From assembly GCA_003133025.1 (NCBI GenBank), contig PKZK01000135.1, forward strand, positions 4,455 to 15,388: a stretch of 10,934 nucleotides of DNA. The letters are read 5' to 3'. Positions 1 to 7,767 of the stretch are shown here, piece after piece. This DNA is from Vulcanimicrobiota bacterium. GTDB lineage: Bacteria > Vulcanimicrobiota > Vulcanimicrobiia > Vulcanimicrobiales > Vulcanimicrobiaceae. Position 1 is the stretch's first letter, and each line of letters opens with the position of its first letter. The notes under the pieces were generated by a model, which did not search any database, was not told the DNA's origin, and was given only the letters and a program-made list of their open reading frames with translations. A program made the position numbers and the translations under genes.

Positions 1-542
1 CGCTTGCCGACGATCATCACCAACTCGGACTCGTAATCGAAATTCTTGAAGGGCAGCGAAGAGACGTCGATCGTGCCGTTGTGGCGGTTGAGCGAGGTAT
101 TGTACTTGTTGAACAGATCCGGAAACGGCGGCAATTTCTCACCGGTCTCGGCCAAGTGCGCGCGATAATTCAGGCCGACGCAGACGATCTTGGGCGGACG
201 CGAGACCAGCGGCCCGTATTCGACCGCGTTCTCGGCGCGCACCGCCGAGGCGGGCGCGTGCAGCGCGATGCGCGCCAAGACGCTCACGTCGCCGCGGCCG
301 GCGACGACGTCGTCGACCGTTTGCGGCACGCCGGCCAGTCCGAGCGCCGCCGCGGCTCGACCCACGTCGATTATGCCGCGCGACGTGCGCAGTCCCAAGT
401 GATCGCGCGCGCCGTCGCGCAGGGTGGTGTAGGTCAGGCTGCGCGGCGCCTCGCCGGCCTCGGCCGCGGTGGGTGCGGATGCTGTCGCCGCCACCGTCGC
501 GGCGGCCGTGCCGGCGAGGAAGGCGCTGCGTGAAGGTGTCAC
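1..542 (-). CDS. Fumarylacetoacetate (FAA) hydrolase family protein, N-terminal part; the gene runs off the left edge of the window
   Basis: Not in the ORF track because there is no stop codon in the window. Manual translation from GTG at 542 gives MTPSRSAFLAGTAAATVAATASAPTAAEAGEAPRSLTYTTLRDG...GPLVSRPPKIVCVGLNYRAHLAETGEKLPPFPDLFNKYNTSL...KNFDYESELVMIVGK. KIVCVGLNYxxH, PxLFxK and DYExEL are hallmark FAH-family motifs. The start codon is inferred. Confidence 0.92.
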   Translation of the reverse strand, partial: MTPSRSAFLAGTAAATVAATASAPTAAEAGEAPRSLTYTTLRDGARDHLGLRTSRGIIDVGRAAAALGLAGVPQTVDDVVAGRGDVSVLARIALHAPASAVRAENAVEYGPLVSRPPKIVCVGLNYRAHLAETGEKLPPFPDLFNKYNTSLNRHNGTIDVSSLPFKNFDYESELVMIVGK

Positions 543-600
543 GCTCGACGAGTTTGGCAGCGGGTGACCAATCTCCGTCGGCCGAAAAGCGCGCGTCACC

Positions 601-1272
601 GTGTTCGGCCCCCTTTCGCGCTTGCCGTTTCTCCTCGCCGTGGCGCTGGTAGCCGCGGCGCTGGGCGATGCGTTCGTGGAGACGGTCTCCAACAGCGGGC
701 TGGTCGGGGCGGGCTACGCCGACGACAACCATGCGAGCGTGCTCCCGGCGTTCTTGCTCGGCGTCATTGCCGCCCTAGAAGCGGCGCGGCGGCGCTGCTG
801 CGCCCTGCTGCGTCGCGGCGAACGCCGCGCGGAAGCCGACCAGACCCTCGCCCTCATGCGCCGCTACCGCGACGTCTCTCCGCTGCGCGATCTTCCGCTC
901 GTGTTGACGCTGCAATTCGCGCTGTTGTTCGTGATGGAAAGCGCCGAACAAGTGGCCTTCGGCGGCAAGCTGCTCGGCGGCACGGCGTGGCTCGGCGGCC
1001 CGATCGCCTTTAGCCTGATCGCGCACGCTACTTTGGGGGCAGGCTGCATGCTGCTGCTGCGCTGGTTCGTGCGCAGGGTTCCGGGCGCGGTCGCGACGTT
1101 CGTGCGCGACGCACTGGACTATCTCGCGTACGTTCTCATCGCCGCCGCGCGCAGCGCGTCGTGCATTCGCACCGCCCGTCGCGACGAACGGCCCCGGCAC
1201 TGGGCTCAGGCGCCGCATTCCCGCCGCATCAGGGACCGCGCACCGCCGCTTCGCTCCTGCGCCTCGACCTAA
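601..1272 (+). CDS. Uncharacterised multi-pass membrane protein (223 aa) with C-terminal RAPP motif; candidate ribosome-arrest leader/sensor for the downstream TonB-dependent receptor
   Basis: 4-5 hydrophobic segments (about aa 8-26, 47-62, 98-112, 135-157, 163-183), then a basic linker and R213-A214-P215-P216 seven codons before TAA. It fills the gap between the divergent FAH gene and the receptor. GTG start with no clear SD. Confidence 0.8.
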   Translation: MFGPLSRLPFLLAVALVAAALGDAFVETVSNSGLVGAGYADDNHASVLPAFLLGVIAALEAARRRCCALLRRGERRAEADQTLALMRRYRDVSPLRDLPLVLTLQFALLFVMESAEQVAFGGKLLGGTAWLGGPIAFSLIAHATLGAGCMLLLRWFVRRVPGAVATFVRDALDYLAYVLIAAARSASCIRTARRDERPRHWAQAPHSRRIRDRAPPLRSCAST

Positions 1273-1286
1273 CCACAGGAACGGGA

Positions 1287-1306
1287 GCCGGGCGTACGCG
1301 CCCGGC
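1287..1306 (+). promoter_or_regulatory. GC-rich RNA hairpin directly 5' of the receptor ribosome-binding site
   Basis: gccgggcg (1287-1294), loop tacg (1295-1298), cgcccggc (1299-1306): a perfect 8-bp stem with a UACG tetraloop and no downstream U-tract. Confidence 0.6.
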
Positions 1307-1313
1307 GGAGGAG
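1307..1313 (+). promoter_or_regulatory. Shine-Dalgarno sequence of the TonB-dependent receptor
   Basis: GGAGGAG, 8 nt upstream of GTG at 1322. Confidence 0.8.
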
Positions 1314-1321
1314 CACTCGAC

Positions 1322-4069
1322 GTGAAACAGATGCGCGCCCTCGCGGCGCTGCTGATCGCGGCATGCATCGCCGTAGCCGTAATGGCCGCGGGCAATGCCG
1401 CCGAAGCCACGACCGGAATCGTCAGCGGAACGGTCGTCGACGCGCACGGCGTCACCGTTGCCGGCGCGCGCGTTGCGGCCGCGTCGCCCTCGGGCCGGTA
1501 TGCCGCGGTCAGCGACGAACGCGGGCGTTTCACGCTCCTCGGCGTCACGCCCGACTCGTATACCGTCACGGTCGAAGCCGTCGGCTTCGAGCCGCTGGTC
1601 GAGTCCGGCGTGTTGGTCTTGCCGGGACAGAATGCGGTGCTCGCCGTTCGCCTCGCGGGCACGCTACGCACCGTGGGCACCGTGCAAGCCAAGAGCAGTG
1701 CGTTCACGCATGGCGCCACGAGCGACTCGTTTACGGTCAACGGCGATGCGGCGCGCGCACTCGCGCCGCCGGCGACGTCGTCGGGTTTGGGCAACTACGG
1801 CGCGGGAACGGTGCAAGGGTCGATCGCCTCGGTGCCCGGCGTCGATTTCGACGCGTTCGGCAACGCGATTCTGCGCGGCGGCAAGATCGACGATGCGGTT
1901 TTCACCTTCGATTCGGTGCCGGTGCCGCAAGGCTTGGTCGCGGAGCCGGGCGGCAACGTGGTCGGCGCGCAATTGCCGACCACGGGCATCGGTTCGACGA
2001 CCGTCACGCTCGCGGGATACGAGACGCAGGGCGACAACGCGCTCGGGGGTGTGATCGATCAGATCCCGGCCGTCGGCACGAACCCCGGCAGCGTGCGCAT
2101 CTCCCTCGCCGACGGTCTGGCGGGCGGCCTCTTTCAGACGAGCGATCTGGAAATTCTCGGCGCGTCACCCGATCTCAAGTGGCGCTACGCGCTCGCCGCG
2201 TACGCGGGCAGCGAGTACTTCGGTTACGGCGACGGGCGCACGTTCTATCCCTCGGAAGCGGGCACGTACGGCCTCGCGTTGCAGAGTCGCGGACAGTTTT
2301 CGATCACGGGCAACGTGCACGACCGGCTCTCGCCGAGCGACGACCTCTCGTTCGTCGCGCTCGCGGGCCAAGCGACGTACGATCAATACGGCTCGCCCTA
2401 TGCGGGCGAAACGGTCGGCGCGTTCAACGGCCAAACGACGGTATATCCAGGCTCGACCAACCCGAATGCACCCGTCGATTACGCCTCGGGCGTGCGCGGC
2501 ACGTACGACATTCTCAAACTCCAATGGCTGCATTCGGGCGCGCACTCGCTCTCGCGCGTGCAACTCTATCAGACGCAATTCGGCTCGCAGGCCGGCGGCC
2601 CGTTTTGGGACGAGAACGGCTTCCCCGACGGCAGCATTTCGCTGGCCTCGCAACAGGGCGGGCGCGAGGAAGGCCTGGGATACGACGGCGAGGACGTGCT
2701 CGGCGAGCGTCACCATCTGCGCTTCGGCGCGGAGTACCGGATCGACAATTCGTTCTTGAACGAGATCGTGCCGACCGCCGACGAGGTGATCGCGTCCAAC
2801 CCCACGTTGTATTCGGCGCTCGCGTACGTGGGCGATACCTGGAGCGTCTCGCGCCGGCTCGACGTGACCGGCGCGGCGCGACTGACCAACACGCACATCG
2901 TGCCCAGCGACGGCTTCAGCTACAACGTCGGCGCGATCGATCCGCACGTCGCGAGTTCGTACGAGCTCGGCTCGAACTACACGTTGCGCGCGACCTTCGA
3001 CCACAACACGGTAGCACCGAAGCCGCTCGAGGCCGACCGCACAGACTCGACCAACGTAACGCCGACGGGTTCGCCCGCGCCGTTCGTGCCGCTCGCGCCA
3101 GAGAAGGGCGACGACTTCACCTATTCCTTCGAAGGCGGCAGCCGCACCCAATTCCGCGCGACCTATTTCGCCGAATACGAAAACAACCGCATCGACGTGC
3201 TCCCGTACAATTTCCGCAGCGCGGTCGCGGGCGGCCTCAATCCCGACGGCGTGGGCGTGCCCACCAACATCGGCAAACTCCAGGCGCACGGCTTCGAACT
3301 CTGGCTCAAACGCGACGGCTTCACGCTCGACTCCAACCTGATTCGCGGCTCCTCGTCGAGTGCTTCGCAGTTCGCCTACAACGATCTCAACGCGCCGGCG
3401 GTCGCGGCGAACCATCTCTTCCCGCTGGGCTACGTGCCCGACTTCACGACGACGCTCTCGTACGAGGTGCCGCTGGCCGGCGGTCGCGTGCGCTTGACGC
3501 CGGCGGTGTCGTACGCTACCGGCTATCCCTACGGCAACGGCAAGATGGTCTACATCTTTAACCCTCAGACCAACAAACCGCAACTCGTGCCCAACGACAA
3601 CTACGTCAACCCCGGGGAAAACTATTATTTCTTGCAGAATCCGTCGAATCCGTACAATCCCGTCAGTAACCCTTACATCGGAAACCTGGGCACGCCGGAG
3701 GGCAACGATCCGAACACGTTGCGCTCGCCGCCGCTGCTCCTCGTCAACGTGCATCTCGAGAGCGCGCTATCGCGGCGCGTCAGCGCATCGTTCGACGTGA
3801 ACAACCTGTTCGGCAACGCCACGCCCAGCGCGTATCAGGTGAATCCGTATCTGATCGGGCCGCCCGGATATGCGGGCGGCAACCCGCTCTATGCGATCGC
3901 TTACCAGGCCGCGGGCGGCTACAACGCGCCGTACACCCTGGGTAACGGCGTGCCCACCAACGACGGCGTGCACCAAGCGGTGCCCTGGAGCTACGGCCGC
4001 GCGGGCTACGTGCCCCAGGGTTACCCCAATGCGCGCACGCTTCGGCTAAAATTTCAGTACAGAATGTGA
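1322..4069 (+). CDS. TonB-dependent outer-membrane receptor with N-terminal carboxypeptidase-regulatory-like domain (915 aa); substrate unknown
   Basis: Sec signal peptide ending AEA; TGIVSGTVVD..G..VAGARV...SDERGRFTLLGVTPDSYTVTVEAVGF (CarboxypepD_reg-like); plug-like motifs VPGV..ILRGG..FTFDSVPV and NALGGVIDQI; alternating beta-strands; FDVNNLF near the C-terminus; terminal strand LRLKFQYRM; strong SD. Confidence 0.9.
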   Translation: MKQMRALAALLIAACIAVAVMAAGNAAEATTGIVSGTVVDAHGVTVAGARVAAASPSGRYAAVSDERGRFTLLGVTPDSYTVTVEAVGFEPLVESGVLVLPGQNAVLAVRLAGTLRTVGTVQAKSSAFTHGATSDSFTVNGDAARALAPPATSSGLGNYGAGTVQGSIASVPGVDFDAFGNAILRGGKIDDAVFTFDSVPVPQGLVAEPGGNVVGAQLPTTGIGSTTVTLAGYETQGDNALGGVIDQIPAVGTNPGSVRISLADGLAGGLFQTSDLEILGASPDLKWRYALAAYAGSEYFGYGDGRTFYPSEAGTYGLALQSRGQFSITGNVHDRLSPSDDLSFVALAGQATYDQYGSPYAGETVGAFNGQTTVYPGSTNPNAPVDYASGVRGTYDILKLQWLHSGAHSLSRVQLYQTQFGSQAGGPFWDENGFPDGSISLASQQGGREEGLGYDGEDVLGERHHLRFGAEYRIDNSFLNEIVPTADEVIASNPTLYSALAYVGDTWSVSRRLDVTGAARLTNTHIVPSDGFSYNVGAIDPHVASSYELGSNYTLRATFDHNTVAPKPLEADRTDSTNVTPTGSPAPFVPLAPEKGDDFTYSFEGGSRTQFRATYFAEYENNRIDVLPYNFRSAVAGGLNPDGVGVPTNIGKLQAHGFELWLKRDGFTLDSNLIRGSSSSASQFAYNDLNAPAVAANHLFPLGYVPDFTTTLSYEVPLAGGRVRLTPAVSYATGYPYGNGKMVYIFNPQTNKPQLVPNDNYVNPGENYYFLQNPSNPYNPVSNPYIGNLGTPEGNDPNTLRSPPLLLVNVHLESALSRRVSASFDVNNLFGNATPSAYQVNPYLIGPPGYAGGNPLYAIAYQAAGGYNAPYTLGNGVPTNDGVHQAVPWSYGRAGYVPQGYPNARTLRLKFQYRM

Positions 4070-4093: not shown

Positions 4094-5941
4094 ATGCCCC
4101 CCCGGATGGCACGTAAGGCAGCCCCCGGCGCCTCGCGCCGCGGGCTGGGCGCATTCGTAGGCGGCCTGCTGATCCCGTACCGGGGTACGCTTGCGGTCGT
4201 GCTCGCGGCGATGCTCGTGGAGACCGCGGCGACGCTCGCGGGTCCGTGGCCGCTCAAAGTGATCCTAGACAACGTCGTCGGCCACCACCCGCTGCCCGCC
4301 TGGCTCGGGCGCACGTTCGGAACCACGCTCGGCCACGGCCGGACGGATATCGCGGTCGCGGCGGCGCTGGCCTTCGTCGGCATCGCGGCACTCGGAGCGC
4401 TGGCCGGTTACGTCGAAAACTATTACACCGAAAGCGTAGGGCAGTTCGTGGCGAGCGACCTGCGGCTCAAAGTCTTCGCACACTTGGAGCGACTCTCACT
4501 TTCCTATTACGACTCGCATCAGACGGGCAAGTTGCTCAGCACCCTGACGGATGACGTACTGACGATTCAAAACTTCGCGTCCTCCTCGACGCTGGGCATA
4601 CTCGTCGACTTATTGACCATCGTCGGTATGGTCGGCATCATGTTTTGGCTCAACTTCGACTTCGCGTTGACCGCGATCGCCGTGACGCCGTTCCTGCTGC
4701 TCTTCGTCGCGCGCTTCAAGGGCGCGGTGAAGGCCGCCGTGCACGAGGTGCGCAACCGGCAGAGCGACATCGTGGCCGTGTTGCAAGAGGTTTTCGAGTC
4801 GATGCGTTCCGTGAAGGCCTTCGGCCGCCAAGACCTCGAGCAGCAGCGCTTGGCCGCCGCCGGAAAGGCGAGCGTCGAAGCGGCGCTCTCGGCGCGGCGC
4901 ATCAAAGCGTTGCTCTCGCCCGTGATCGCGGTGGTGGTGGCGGCCTGCACGGCCTTCGTGCTCTGGCGCGGCGCCAACCTGATTCTCGCCGGCGCGATGA
5001 CGGTCGGCGCGCTGACCGTGTTTCTGGCCTACCTGACTAAGTTTTTCAAGCCGGTGCAAGACCTCGCAAAGATGACCAACGCGATCGCGCAGACGACGGT
5101 GGGCGTCGAACGTATCCGGAGCCTGCTCGACGTCGACGCAATCATCGCGGAGCGGCCGGATGCGCTCGTGCCCACCAAGGTGCGCGGCGCGATCACCTTC
5201 GAGAACGTCGCCTTCGGCTACGATCCCGACGTGCCGGTGCTCAAGGACGTCTGCTTCTCGGTCGAGCCGGGACAACTCGTCGGCATCGTCGGCGCAACGG
5301 GCGGCGGCAAATCGACCATCATGAGCCTCCTGCCACGCTTCTACGACGCGGTCTCGGGTCGGGTGCTGCTCGACGGCGTCGACGTTCGCGACTACTCGCT
5401 CCAGGCGCTGCGCGATCAGATCGCCTTCGTGCTCCAGGATACGGTCTTGTTCCGCGGGTCGATTCGTGAAAACATCGCCTACGGCAAAGCCGATGCGACC
5501 GACGCCGAAATCGTGGCGGCCGCGAAGATCGCCAACGCGCACGACTTCATCATGGCGATGCCGCACGGTTACGACACGCCGGTCGGCGAGCGCGGCCTCA
5601 CCCTTTCAGGCGGCCAGCGCCAGCGCATCGGCATCGCGCGGGCGATCGTGCGCGACGCGCCCATCCTGCTCCTGGACGAACCGACGGCGGCGCTGGACAC
5701 CGAATCGGAGAAGCTGGTCATCGAGGCGACGGAGCGCCTCATGAAGGGACGCACGGTAATGACGATCGCGCACCGCCTGAGCACGATTCGCGACGCCGAC
5801 AAAATCATCGTGATCAAGGACGGCGTGGTGTGCGAACAGGGCACGCACGAGGAATTGCTCGCCTTGGACGGCACATACGCGGAGTTGCATCGCATCCAAT
5901 TCGAGAGCGCTGCCACCCCCGCCGCCGGCGCGCCGGCCTAG
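4094..5941 (+). CDS. ABC exporter, fused permease/ATP-binding protein (MsbA/MdlB-like half transporter)
   Basis: N-terminal transmembrane domain plus NBD with Walker A GATGGGKST, Q-loop VLQD, signature LSGGQRQRIGIAR, Walker B ILLLDEPT, D-loop ALD and H-loop IAHRLSTI. SD-like gagggg at 4079-4084. Alternative start ATG 4106. Confidence 0.96.
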   Translation: MPPRMARKAAPGASRRGLGAFVGGLLIPYRGTLAVVLAAMLVETAATLAGPWPLKVILDNVVGHHPLPAWLGRTFGTTLGHGRTDIAVAAALAFVGIAALGALAGYVENYYTESVGQFVASDLRLKVFAHLERLSLSYYDSHQTGKLLSTLTDDVLTIQNFASSSTLGILVDLLTIVGMVGIMFWLNFDFALTAIAVTPFLLLFVARFKGAVKAAVHEVRNRQSDIVAVLQEVFESMRSVKAFGRQDLEQQRLAAAGKASVEAALSARRIKALLSPVIAVVVAACTAFVLWRGANLILAGAMTVGALTVFLAYLTKFFKPVQDLAKMTNAIAQTTVGVERIRSLLDVDAIIAERPDALVPTKVRGAITFENVAFGYDPDVPVLKDVCFSVEPGQLVGIVGATGGGKSTIMSLLPRFYDAVSGRVLLDGVDVRDYSLQALRDQIAFVLQDTVLFRGSIRENIAYGKADATDAEIVAAAKIANAHDFIMAMPHGYDTPVGERGLTLSGGQRQRIGIARAIVRDAPILLLDEPTAALDTESEKLVIEATERLMKGRTVMTIAHRLSTIRDADKIIVIKDGVVCEQGTHEELLALDGTYAELHRIQFESAATPAAGAPA

Positions 5942-5946
5942 GAGCC

Positions 5947-6930
5947 ATGCCCACGCGTTCGCTCATCGTGCTGCCCGACGACTCGCCGCGCGAGATTCTC
6001 GACGCGATCGGCCGGGCGCAGCACTCGCTGCGGGTCAAGATGTTCGTCTTCTCCGATCCGGACTTGCTCGAGGCCGTGATCGCCGCCAAGCGGCGCGGGC
6101 TCGCTGTGCGCGTGATGCTCAACCCGGCGCGGCGCGACGGCCGGGACGACAACGTTGCCGCACGCGCGGCTCTGCTCGCGGCCGGCGTGAACGTGCAGGA
6201 CGCCAACCCGCGCTTCGATTTGACCCACGAGAAATCGATGGTCGTCGACGACACGGTCGCCTTCGTCAAATCGCTCAATTGGGAGACGAAAAACCTCACC
6301 GAGACGCGCGACTACGCGATCGTCACCGACCATCCGCGCGAGGTCGCCGAGATCGGTGCGTGTTTCGAGGCCGACTGGCATCGCCAAGATTTCACGCCCG
6401 GAGCGGATGCCGGCCTGGTGTGGTGTCCCGACAACGGACGCGCGCGCATCGGCGACTTCATCGACAACGCGCACAAGACGCTCTTCGTGCAGAACGAACG
6501 CTATCAAGACGCGCTCGTGATCGAACGCTTGGTGCGCGCCGCCGAACGCGGCGTGAAGGTGCACGTGATGGCGCGCGCGCCGCACACGCTCAAGGCCGAC
6601 AAGTTGATCGAAGGCGTCGGCGGACTACGCATCCTCGACGACGTGGGCGTCAAAATCCACAAGCTCAAGCACCTAAAGCTGCACGGCAAGATGTTTCTGG
6701 CCGACGGCGTGGCGGGCGTGGTCGGCTCGATCAACCTCGCACCGGGCAGCTTCGACGGCAGGCGCGAGCTGGCGATCGAGGTGCGCGACGACGCGGTGGT
6801 CGAGCGGCTTCACGACGTGGCCCGCGCCGACTGGGCCAACTCGCACCCGCTCGACCTCTCCGATGCGGGACTGCTCGCCGACCTCAAGGACCGGCAAGAC
6901 GTCGCCGAAGGGCTCCTGCCGAGCTCTTAG
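5947..6930 (+). CDS. Phospholipase D superfamily protein with two HKD motifs (cardiolipin-synthase-like, no membrane anchor), 327 aa
   Basis: HEKSMVVD (from 6226) and HGKMFLAD...GSIN (from 6682). The likely start is ATG 5947 (MPTRSLIVLPDD), 5 nt after the ABC stop. The track's 5830 start overlaps the ABC gene and reads as low-complexity R-rich sequence. Confidence 0.92.
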   Translation: MPTRSLIVLPDDSPREILDAIGRAQHSLRVKMFVFSDPDLLEAVIAAKRRGLAVRVMLNPARRDGRDDNVAARAALLAAGVNVQDANPRFDLTHEKSMVVDDTVAFVKSLNWETKNLTETRDYAIVTDHPREVAEIGACFEADWHRQDFTPGADAGLVWCPDNGRARIGDFIDNAHKTLFVQNERYQDALVIERLVRAAERGVKVHVMARAPHTLKADKLIEGVGGLRILDDVGVKIHKLKHLKLHGKMFLADGVAGVVGSINLAPGSFDGRRELAIEVRDDAVVERLHDVARADWANSHPLDLSDAGLLADLKDRQDVAEGLLPSS

Positions 6931-6951: not shown

Positions 6952-7767
6952 TCAGCGCACGGGCGTTACGTGACGCACGGCGCAGGCCACGAGCAAGACG
7001 ATGCCCGCCGTCGTACACGTGCCGAGCGCGACCACCGAGGCTTCGAGGCCGAAAGCGCCGCCGGTCAGCGCGACCGGTCCGCTCAGCGTGCCGAGGATGA
7101 GGCCGGGCGCCGCCGAGCCCGAGACGGGCGTGCTGAAGATCGTGCCCTCGGCGAAATTCCAGCCCAGATGAATGCCGATCGGAAACCACAGGTTTCCGCT
7201 CAGCCAAAACGCGGCGCCCAGTAGGAGGCCGGCTTCAGCAGCGATCGCGGCCGAACTGAAGGGCGTGGCGTGCGGATTGGCCGCGTGCGCGAAGCCGAAA
7301 ACGAGCGAGGTGATACCGATCGCAGCCCACGCGTTCCAGCCCGCGATCCAGCGAAAGAGATAGCCGCGGAAGAGCACTTCCTCGACGACCGCGGTCGCGA
7401 GCGCGCCCGCCGCAGCGGCGGCGAGGTCGACGGGCACCGGGGACGGGCCTTGCAGATGGTACGCGCCGAGCAGCGCGAGCGAGAACATGACGAGCGCGAT
7501 CAGCGCGATGCCGCCGAGCACCCCGCCCGCGAACCAGGGCAGACCGGCGGGCGCGAGTTCGACGGGCAGGCGGCGTTCGAGATAACGCGTGTGCAGCCAG
7601 TACACCCCGCCCGCCCCGAGCGCCACGCAGAGCGCGACGACGAGCGGCGGCAGACCGTGCATGACGGTCTGCACGACGACGGCCACGATAACGACCGACA
7701 CCGGACCGAGCGCCGCCGCGAAGAAACGCAGGACGCGTTCGCCCGCGCCGCTCGCGGCGACGCTCAC
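6952..7767 (-). CDS. CPBP family (CAAX/Abi, Rce1-like) intramembrane glutamic endopeptidase, 271 aa
   Basis: Motifs EEVLFRG (EExxxR), FGFAH (FxxxH) and HLGWN (HxxxN) with multiple TM helices. Start GTG at 7767 overlaps the ALDH stop (GTGA). The upstream 233 aa of the track ORF lie inside the ALDH gene. Confidence 0.92.
   Translation of the reverse strand: MSVAASGAGERVLRFFAAALGPVSVVIVAVVVQTVMHGLPPLVVALCVALGAGGVYWLHTRYLERRLPVELAPAGLPWFAGGVLGGIALIALVMFSLALLGAYHLQGPSPVPVDLAAAAAGALATAVVEEVLFRGYLFRWIAGWNAWAAIGITSLVFGFAHAANPHATPFSSAAIAAEAGLLLGAAFWLSGNLWFPIGIHLGWNFAEGTIFSTPVSGSAAPGLILGTLSGPVALTGGAFGLEASVVALGTCTTAGIVLLVACAVRHVTPVR

Follow-up and report, generated by a model that had tools for sequence, protein, structure and literature searches.

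We analyzed a 10,934-nt stretch of DNA (the window) from a Vulcanimicrobiota bacterium (GCA_003133025.1, contig PKZK01000135.1, positions 4,455-15,388 of the forward strand), in which an open reading frame (ORF) at 601..1272 on the forward strand, with a GTG start, encodes a 223-residue membrane protein that ends in the arrest-type motif RAPP and precedes the gene of a TonB-dependent-type outer-membrane receptor. It is very probable that this ORF is the leader of an arrest-based translational switch. The ribosome translating the leader would stall on the RAPP prolines and act in cis on the next gene, covering an anti-Shine-Dalgarno (anti-SD) segment and thereby freeing the receptor's Shine-Dalgarno (SD) sequence. 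Given such a switch, a metal ion is a fairly probable signal; it would bind a predicted Asp/Glu/His site at the outer face of the membrane and probably release the stall, after which the hairpin would close over the SD. For the full explanation, with arrest leader, anti-SD switch and release by metal combined, we put the chances somewhat above even. The support consists of a conserved motif at conserved spacing, a conserved pairing of genes, complementarity and covariation between anti-SD and SD, and a set of conserved polar residues.

RAPP motif and the predicted stem over the Shine-Dalgarno sequence

The leader's C-terminus reads ...IRDRAPPLRSCAST, with the stop codon at 1270-1272. Its motif, R213-P216, is encoded at 1237-1248 by the codons CGC GCA CCG CCG, and the receptor's GTG start lies at 1322, a gap of 49 nt from the leader's stop; these coordinates bear out a first-pass annotation of the window, which had described RAPP at the end of a 223-residue polytopic ORF placed 49 nt before a receptor. 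The check that it proposed, that the motif be conserved in homologs despite a divergent linker, came out in its favor. R[AG]PP is found 4-11 residues before the stop in 77 of 80 homologs (those at E <= 0.001 among 7997 candidates scored), the exceptions being one RASP and two fragments. Among the best 150 of the 395 clusters of relatives in a representative library, 142 representatives carry R[AG]P[P] within their last 45 residues, and the eight misses comprise three RSPP/RPPP variants, the others being fragments, frameshifts or a fusion. R213, P215 and P216 hardly vary, in contrast to the linker (mean entropy 2.9 bits), and the motif codons differ synonymously among relatives. The distance from W130 to the motif's Arg falls within 76-80 residues for 210 of the 217 relatives. 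By sequence, the leader would thus belong to the RAPP class, with R-[AG]-P-P near the C-terminus of a small membrane protein.

The 3184 proteins predicted from the window's genome contain RAPP only 10 times where 35 are expected, and five of these lie within 15 residues of the protein's end. Internal RAPP is accordingly found 5 times (35 expected) and RGPP 3 times (18 expected), an indirect sign that this lineage's ribosome may be hindered by the motif. All five called proteins with a C-terminal RAPP resemble leaders of this kind.

Downstream of the motif, the anti-SD segment (1251-1258, forward strand) has the core GCUCCU at 1253-1258, which pairs with AGGAGC at 1309-1314, part of the receptor's SD, GGAGGAGC, at 1307-1314. 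In RNA folding calculations, a GC hairpin of 8 bp with a UACG loop (1287-1306) sets the anti-SD beside the SD, and the receptor's start codon pairs with 1247-1249. When P215 (codon 1243-1245) occupies the P-site, the anti-SD falls within the footprint of the stalled ribosome; this register, with the third motif residue in the P-site, has been shown for the RAPP leader CruR (PMC12992588).

We compared the 18 nt from the last Pro codon with each locus's own SD region at 64 distinct loci, which were selected from 107 fetched for the leader profile by a motif at most 18 residues from the stop and a downstream ORF of at least 250 residues. The duplex between a locus's own anti-SD and SD averages -12.6 kcal/mol, compared to -9.5 kcal/mol for permuted pairs, and none of 20,000 permutations did as well, though the loci are related and permutation counts therefore overstate their independence, a first point against the reading. 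The covariation was repeated at 23 loci of a His-bearing clade described below (1/20,000) and at 11 further loci (2/20,000). It was not found in three windows offset upstream (1021, 13,531 and 4099 of 20,000) or in 64 ordinary gene pairs (2186/20,000), whose start codons were chosen by codon score, those of the leader loci being chosen by SD strength. The window's own duplex reaches -21.2 kcal/mol, a value equaled by 0.7% of 579 ordinary gene pairs. Atypical SDs have matched partners (ACAGGT with TACCTGT, TAGGAT with TCCTA), and Leu codons directly after the motif are CTC or CTT in 55 of 72 cases, compared to 857 of 1743 elsewhere. When the modeled ribosome advances the last six codons to reach the stall position, the unpaired probability of the SD at receptor loci increases from 0.15 to 0.38.

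Because the anti-SD pairs and covaries with the next gene's SD, a stalled ribosome would free that SD; the next gene is co-directional, and its SD is predicted to be sequestered in a stem, which a ribosome stalled on the leader would open. Cis arrest that keeps the receptor on, as proposed in the first-pass annotation, appears likely, and the covariation supplies a mechanism that was absent from it. Three further observations count against this reading. The window's own SD is predicted to open only modestly, its unpaired probability changing from 0.18-0.20 to 0.30-0.38, the fold of the region is not more stable than those of its shuffled versions (z -0.83) and the window copy's W130-R213 spacing of 83 residues is the longest of the 217. 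Moreover, stalling, ligand binding and regulatory output in this organism are all read from sequence and models.

A stall could instead control transcription, not initiation, in the manner of CruR: once the stall is released, Rho would gain access to the RNA and terminate transcription upstream of the receptor gene, leaving the anti-SD a secondary role. Termination by Rho is the demonstrated output of CruR (PMC9426467), and the 49-nt gap has no intrinsic terminator, nor was a sigma-70 promoter found in it. Yet the gap is short and structured, and the covariation is specific to the SD and coincides exactly with the footprint. Although both outputs can act together, we regard control by Rho as very improbable.

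Membrane anatomy and the predicted outer-face site

The structure model of the leader (pLDDT 84.5) is a four-helix membrane protein, with TM1 at residues 8-30 (622-690), TM2 at 47-64 (739-792, from model and hydropathy), TM3 at 97-119 (889-957) and TM4 at 135-157 (1003-1071), the last following a WLGGP turn. The N-terminus, loop 2 and the tail are basic and loops 1 and 3 are uncharged, from which we infer, by the positive-inside rule, an N-in orientation with loops 1 and 3 outside. The predicted periplasmic loop 1 (residues 31-46; 691-738) has 0.03 Lys/Arg per residue.

Eight invariant polar residues are predicted at the outer ends: D23 and E27 in TM1, N31 and D41 in loop 1, E113, E116 and Q117 in TM3, and H142 in TM4. 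Together, the Asp, Glu and His among them would form a predicted metal site. Among 221 sequences of the main clades, E27 and E116 are present in all, D41 in 220, E113 in 218 and H142 in 211; D23 is Asp in 198 and Asn in 17, and H44, in the same loop as N31 and D41, is kept in 113. TM3 also carries Q105. Coupling analysis of 260 sequences links the outer ends of TM1, TM3 and TM4 (V29-F137, V26-G133, D23-Q117 and E27-E116), a signal that is weak and driven by clades. A set of three conserved His plus Met, as in the Streptomyces-type four-span leaders, is absent from the window's clade, where a single near-invariant His (H142) accompanies four carboxylates. In a homologous clade, hereafter the His clade (profile match 99.7%), residue 23 is His, residues 27 and 116 are Asp and H142 is lost.

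An amphipathic helix at residues 158-183 (1072-1149; family hydrophobic moment 1.01) continues TM4 in the model, where a single helix runs from 135 to 196, and the window copy has a 3-residue insertion in it compared to most relatives. The first-pass annotation had taken this segment for the last hydrophobic one, ending about 30 residues from the motif and hence about one exit-tunnel length away. That argument depends on the helix being a membrane span, which it probably is not; the last likely span reaches to around residue 157, leaving about 58 residues between it and the stall codon. Upon ligand binding, release would instead pass along the continuous TM4-amphipathic helix, which would reach the tunnel mouth.

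The arrest switch could alternatively be a monitor similar to MifM or ApcA, in which charged membrane spans would make insertion or folding depend on Sec/YidC activity, proton motive force or outside pH and a pulling force, not a metal, would release the stall. SecM, ApdA, ApdP, ApcA and MifM are Sec/YidC-monitoring substrates with a RAPP-like stalling motif; as proposed here, their stalled ribosomes open a stem hiding the next SD, and insertion force is an established mode of release (PMC10987492). Both main outputs of the window's family, the receptor and LCP proteins, are envelope proteins, and in an acid habitat the protonation of the invariant Glu/Asp residues within or next to spans 1 and 3 would be expected to change. 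Unlike the leaders of this family, however, the known monitors precede sec or yidC genes and have no conserved folded sensor; at the loci examined, no secA, secDF or yidC gene lies behind a leader. The last span also ends some 58 residues ahead of the stall site, and the exchange of Asp and His between clades, together with the His3-rich leaders found before CopC genes (see below), looks like the tuning of a ligand site. We therefore consider an insertion monitor unlikely and continue with ligand-released arrest.

Downstream genes and the candidate signal

The gene behind the leader (1322-4069, forward strand) encodes a 915-residue TonB-dependent-type outer-membrane transporter with a signal peptide, a CarboxypepD_reg domain, a plug region and a beta-barrel. 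Its model resembles TonB-dependent transporters, with 344 solved chains matched at E <= 0.001 (best 2e-25), which confirms its earlier identification as a receptor, although the fold fits many transporter classes equally and the plug region is modeled at low confidence. Pfam assigns only CarboxypepD_reg to the window's sequence, PF00593 being present on many homologs, and a sequence search against solved structures gave a match limited to the N-terminal domain.

An orthologous receptor lies 15-80 nt downstream in 29 of the top 30 leader loci, and the remaining locus is cut by the contig end. Thus the expectation that the next gene would consistently be a TonB receptor or metal-uptake gene stands as to the conserved, co-directional receptor. 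It fails for a second clade, which heads LCP genes: among 32 lower-scoring loci, hand-picked to span genera, 26 lead to LCP, three to a receptor, one to a bestrophin-like gene and then LCP and one to a small unknown gene, while one is uncalled. In a quick tree of 104 leaders, the LCP and His clades are split from the receptor group (SH-aLRT 97); the His clade precedes other CarboxypepD receptors, some of which have His-rich N-termini. One genus carries the domain as a fusion, preceded by a region of 340 residues. This form, which nests inside the LCP clade, lacks both the tail and the partner gene (7 of 8 loci, one being cut), a joint loss that counts in favor of the cis switch. These fusion proteins have about 500 residues (L031-L037, P0205), and their N-terminal part is weakly sulfotransferase-like (PF13469, E 0.008, below the cut-off). 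The LCP proteins behind leaders (L040-L070, L102-L111) show three motif types; the Arg of R-[ST]-D, which we take to be the usual LCP motif, is kept in 7 of 29, and many of these proteins may be catalytically altered.

The leader is present at 18 of the 30 best receptor loci and absent from 12, which counts against the switch reading. Together with the persistence of the tail-less domain in the fusion, this would suit a stall that is unregulated or weak and merely couples the next gene's translation at a set level, or a released membrane protein that serves as partner or chaperone of the next product. The fixed spacing between site and motif, the invariant polar site and the reuse of the leader before unrelated genes are better suited to a sensor acting in cis, and we judge an unregulated stall very improbable.

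If the leader is such a sensor, its neighbors offer clues to the signal. Nramp-family genes, of which there are 3 among the 3184 genes of the window's genome, occur at five LCP-type loci and as a fragment at a sixth, in at least four genera. One Nramp neighbor is closest to entry 7qia (E 5e-53, compared to 2e-14 for MntH); the 7QIA clade is described as Mg2+/Mn2+ transporters with a DxxG signature (PMC8806188). Further neighbors include MntR/DtxR-type genes (two loci), a CsoR-type gene, DUF1007 with NicO, PCuAC, SCO1 and a copper/cobalt island. This island (L146, 4340-12801; CusF-like, CopC-CopD, YcnI, and CbiM with partners) adjoins a locus of the family and also holds a second RAPP-ending membrane leader, of 233 residues (7041-7739, reverse strand) with a Met-rich loop. 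YcnI itself was found in none of the window genome's proteins and four times in 121 relatives.

TML16677.1, a row in the source list of Fig. 4B of PMC12992588, resembled the leader family by eye. It represents a family of about 190 residues from soil metagenomes (L194-L313) that precedes CopC/CopD, YcnI, small cupredoxin-like proteins and a secreted protein of about 310 residues with no Pfam domain. A motif scan for this kind gave at least 120 stretches, at least 77 of them in frame with a tail and at least 55 distinct; among the matches listed, 14 of 37 called downstream genes are CopC and one is YcnI. These CopC leaders have three invariant His and the same anti-SD pattern (49 loci, 0/20,000, one control window giving 94/20,000). 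Profiles of the window's family and of the CopC leaders match at 96% over their whole length and at 91% without the tail, compared to at most 1% for controls. Judged by sequence, the two families probably have a metal-site ancestry in common.

Carboxylate-rich coordination suits a harder ion than Cu+. Given the carboxylate-rich site and the Nramp and MntR neighbors, a hard divalent ion (Mn2+, Mg2+ or Fe2+) would be favored over Cu+, although this is the weakest step of the explanation. Several findings tell against a metal signal. Most neighbors of leaders are unrelated to metals, and neither the LCP ligases nor the DJ-1/PfpI gene behind another leader of this genome are metal-uptake genes. 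Some of the Nramp loci are related to one another, and the TM1 motifs of their Nramp proteins fit neither the NRMT signature (DxxG is absent) nor canonical MntH exactly. The match to the CopC leaders falls to 31% when the columns used for selection are masked and to 25% for the N-terminal half. Finally, we infer, rather than observe, that the polar residues cluster in space.

The switch might also sense an envelope ligand other than a metal, for instance phosphate, a polyprenyl phosphate carrier or some organic nutrient that the receptor imports. The substrates of LCP enzymes are polyprenyl-linked, phosphoesterase genes adjoin four leader loci and the receptor's fold fits many classes equally. 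However, a phosphoesterase family query matches 41 of the 3184 window-genome proteins, unusually many for a 3.3-Mb genome, and the conserved set of residues is acidic, with no conserved outer-face Arg or Lys suited to an anion among leader relatives. A non-metal ligand is in our view quite improbable, and a metal ion is the signal that we prefer.

A broader reading is doubtful: the window's family would be one branch of an unrecognized superfamily of arrest leaders with four helices, in which the metal site at the outer face was adapted to different ions, being His-rich and copper-binding before CopC, His/Asp before one receptor class and carboxylate-rich in the window. The window's branch would then be the first case of a nascent chain that senses Mn2+ or Mg2+ in the periplasm. 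If so, an outer-membrane importer and an LCP cell-wall ligase would be under ribosome-arrest control.

Known arrest leaders and further features

The closest precedent is CruR (Bp2923, DUF2946) of Bordetella pertussis, a RAPP-containing upstream ORF before a TonB-dependent transporter (PMC9426467) for which arrest has been shown (PMC12992588). As in the window, RAPP lies near the C-terminus at a fixed distance from a presumed sensor; arrest keeps the transporter on in CruR, as is predicted for the window, and repression there depends on copper and Rho (PMC9426467). CruR differs in having DUF2946, a CxxC about 45 residues before RAPP and one export signal, whereas the window's leader has four spans, a carboxylate/His set instead of Cys and, in its family, LCP genes as additional targets; it appears to act through occlusion of the SD and not, or not only, through termination by Rho. 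The first-pass annotation had noted that no known family and no CxxC were recognizable, and both observations hold. No Pfam or NCBIfam family passes for the leader or 55 aligned members, and the DUF2946 check it suggested gave no match at E 0.1 for the leader or at E 0.01 for those members. CxxC is absent from the leader's 223 residues and occurs, at unaligned positions, in just 15 of 228 relatives.

In Streptomyces lividans, SLIV_18480, 27375, 33595 and 33605 are four-span RAPP/RGPP peptides with arrest shown in vitro (PMC12992588). They share with the window's leader the four predicted spans, the C-terminal RAPP/RGPP and a proposed metal site, but theirs is a His3/Met site, and the downstream genes, which are metal-related in S. 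lividans, and the phylum differ. The leader profile showed no homology to four actinobacterial ycnI-leader proteins that stood in for them (1.6% and 2.9%), a comparison with a shallow profile that did not include the SLIV proteins themselves. The CopC leaders resemble the window's family in having four spans, a His ending span 1, E-x2-E-x5-G-H in span 3 and the anti-SD arrangement. They differ by their three invariant His and the copper-handling genes downstream, and the available part of PMC12992588 lists them with neither a description nor a test. CutF of Rhodobacter capsulatus is a further case in which a nascent chain reads a periplasmic metal, and its stall opens a stem that covers the following ribosome-binding site; it differs in having DUF2946, a polyproline motif at which copper induces the stall and a detoxifying oxidase as output (bioRxiv 10.1101/2025.02.05.636593).

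Given that CruR and the four-helix SLIV leaders are in print (PMC9426467, PMC12992588), and that a probable distant relative is listed in the latter, the earlier claim of a new attenuation system or principle was overstated. In the PMC12992588 survey, TonB-linked leaders nearly all have signal sequences and four-span leaders have predicted metal sites; it names as open questions whether non-Sec RAPP leaders regulate their neighbors, by what mechanism and with what source of releasing force. The phylum is not mentioned in the available main text, and the portion of the uORF list covered has no WLGGP, WLGAP or 'LCP family' entry. We found no published description of the window's leader family, with the survey's lists partly covered, so that members may be listed there.

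The family would make a clean test case: its candidate site is folded, invariant and constantly spaced from the motif, clades differ naturally in that site, the fusion proteins provide a control that lacks the tail, one genome has six copies, and the anti-SD covaries with its target. With it, control by arrest would reach LCP genes and also a phylum whose regulators have been little studied and of which a cultured member exists (PMC10582173). For an uncharacterized receptor family, the leader paired with it may point to the class of substrate.

The leader profile matches 171 of 401 Vulcanimicrobiota genomes, all within three families of one class and from soil and peat bacteria, and none of 69 genomes from the remaining 18 families of the phylum. 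Of 37 named records, 27 have Vulcanimicrobiota, Eremiobacteraeota or one of their genera in the title; the other 10 are labeled differently, and several of these share leader ends with genomes filed in the window's family. No plasmid relatives were found. The window's genome has five clear leader copies and a likely sixth. The five RAPP leaders other than the window's own lie at L071 (4807-5427), L072 (1848-2510), L073 (2148-2813) and L074 (5162-5827), all on the reverse strand, and L314 (530-1096, forward); behind them are one LCP gene, one DJ-1/PfpI gene followed by SCO1, and three further CarboxypepD receptors. For the window's clade, one genome has two leader-receptor units in tandem; for the His clade, such tandems are present in several genomes (L149, L147). 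Several leaders (L029/L098, L096, L099, L101) are frameshifted or broken in their assemblies, in part with RAPP in another frame, through either assembly error or decay.

Foldseek gave no match for the leader model at E <= 0.001. The best fold match was a MacB/FtsX-type membrane domain (Z 8.8, root-mean-square deviation 4.9, 159 residues aligned), which we read as a common helical arrangement, and weak matches of this model are not taken as evidence for a new fold. Atlas look-alikes are unnamed clusters from Vulcanimicrobiota, Dormiibacterota and Actinomycetota, none with a family. Four RNA runs contained short contigs of low depth and 99% identity to parts of leader and receptor, none of them spanning the gap; with no silent control, they say nothing on expression.

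A promoter-like pair, GCGGG-N18-CGAAA (560-587, forward strand), ends 13 nt before the leader's start, a position that suggests a leaderless mRNA. The related motif SAGG-N16/17-NGAA lies 8-13 nt before the start at most of 58 leader-family loci and precedes 3-6% of all window-genome genes, housekeeping genes included, so it is not leader-specific and gives no clue to a regulon; it looks like the lineage's typical promoter of leaderless mRNAs and fits no consensus tried. Rfam had no match for the leader region's RNA, and leaders share no palindrome upstream. Behind the receptor, after 24 nt, the window holds an ABC exporter-type transporter and then a phospholipase D-like gene (4094-6930), an order not seen at related loci. 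On the other side, a divergent gene of the fumarylacetoacetate-hydrolase family (1-542, reverse strand), with a twin-arginine-like N-terminal signal, starts 58 nt from the leader's start.

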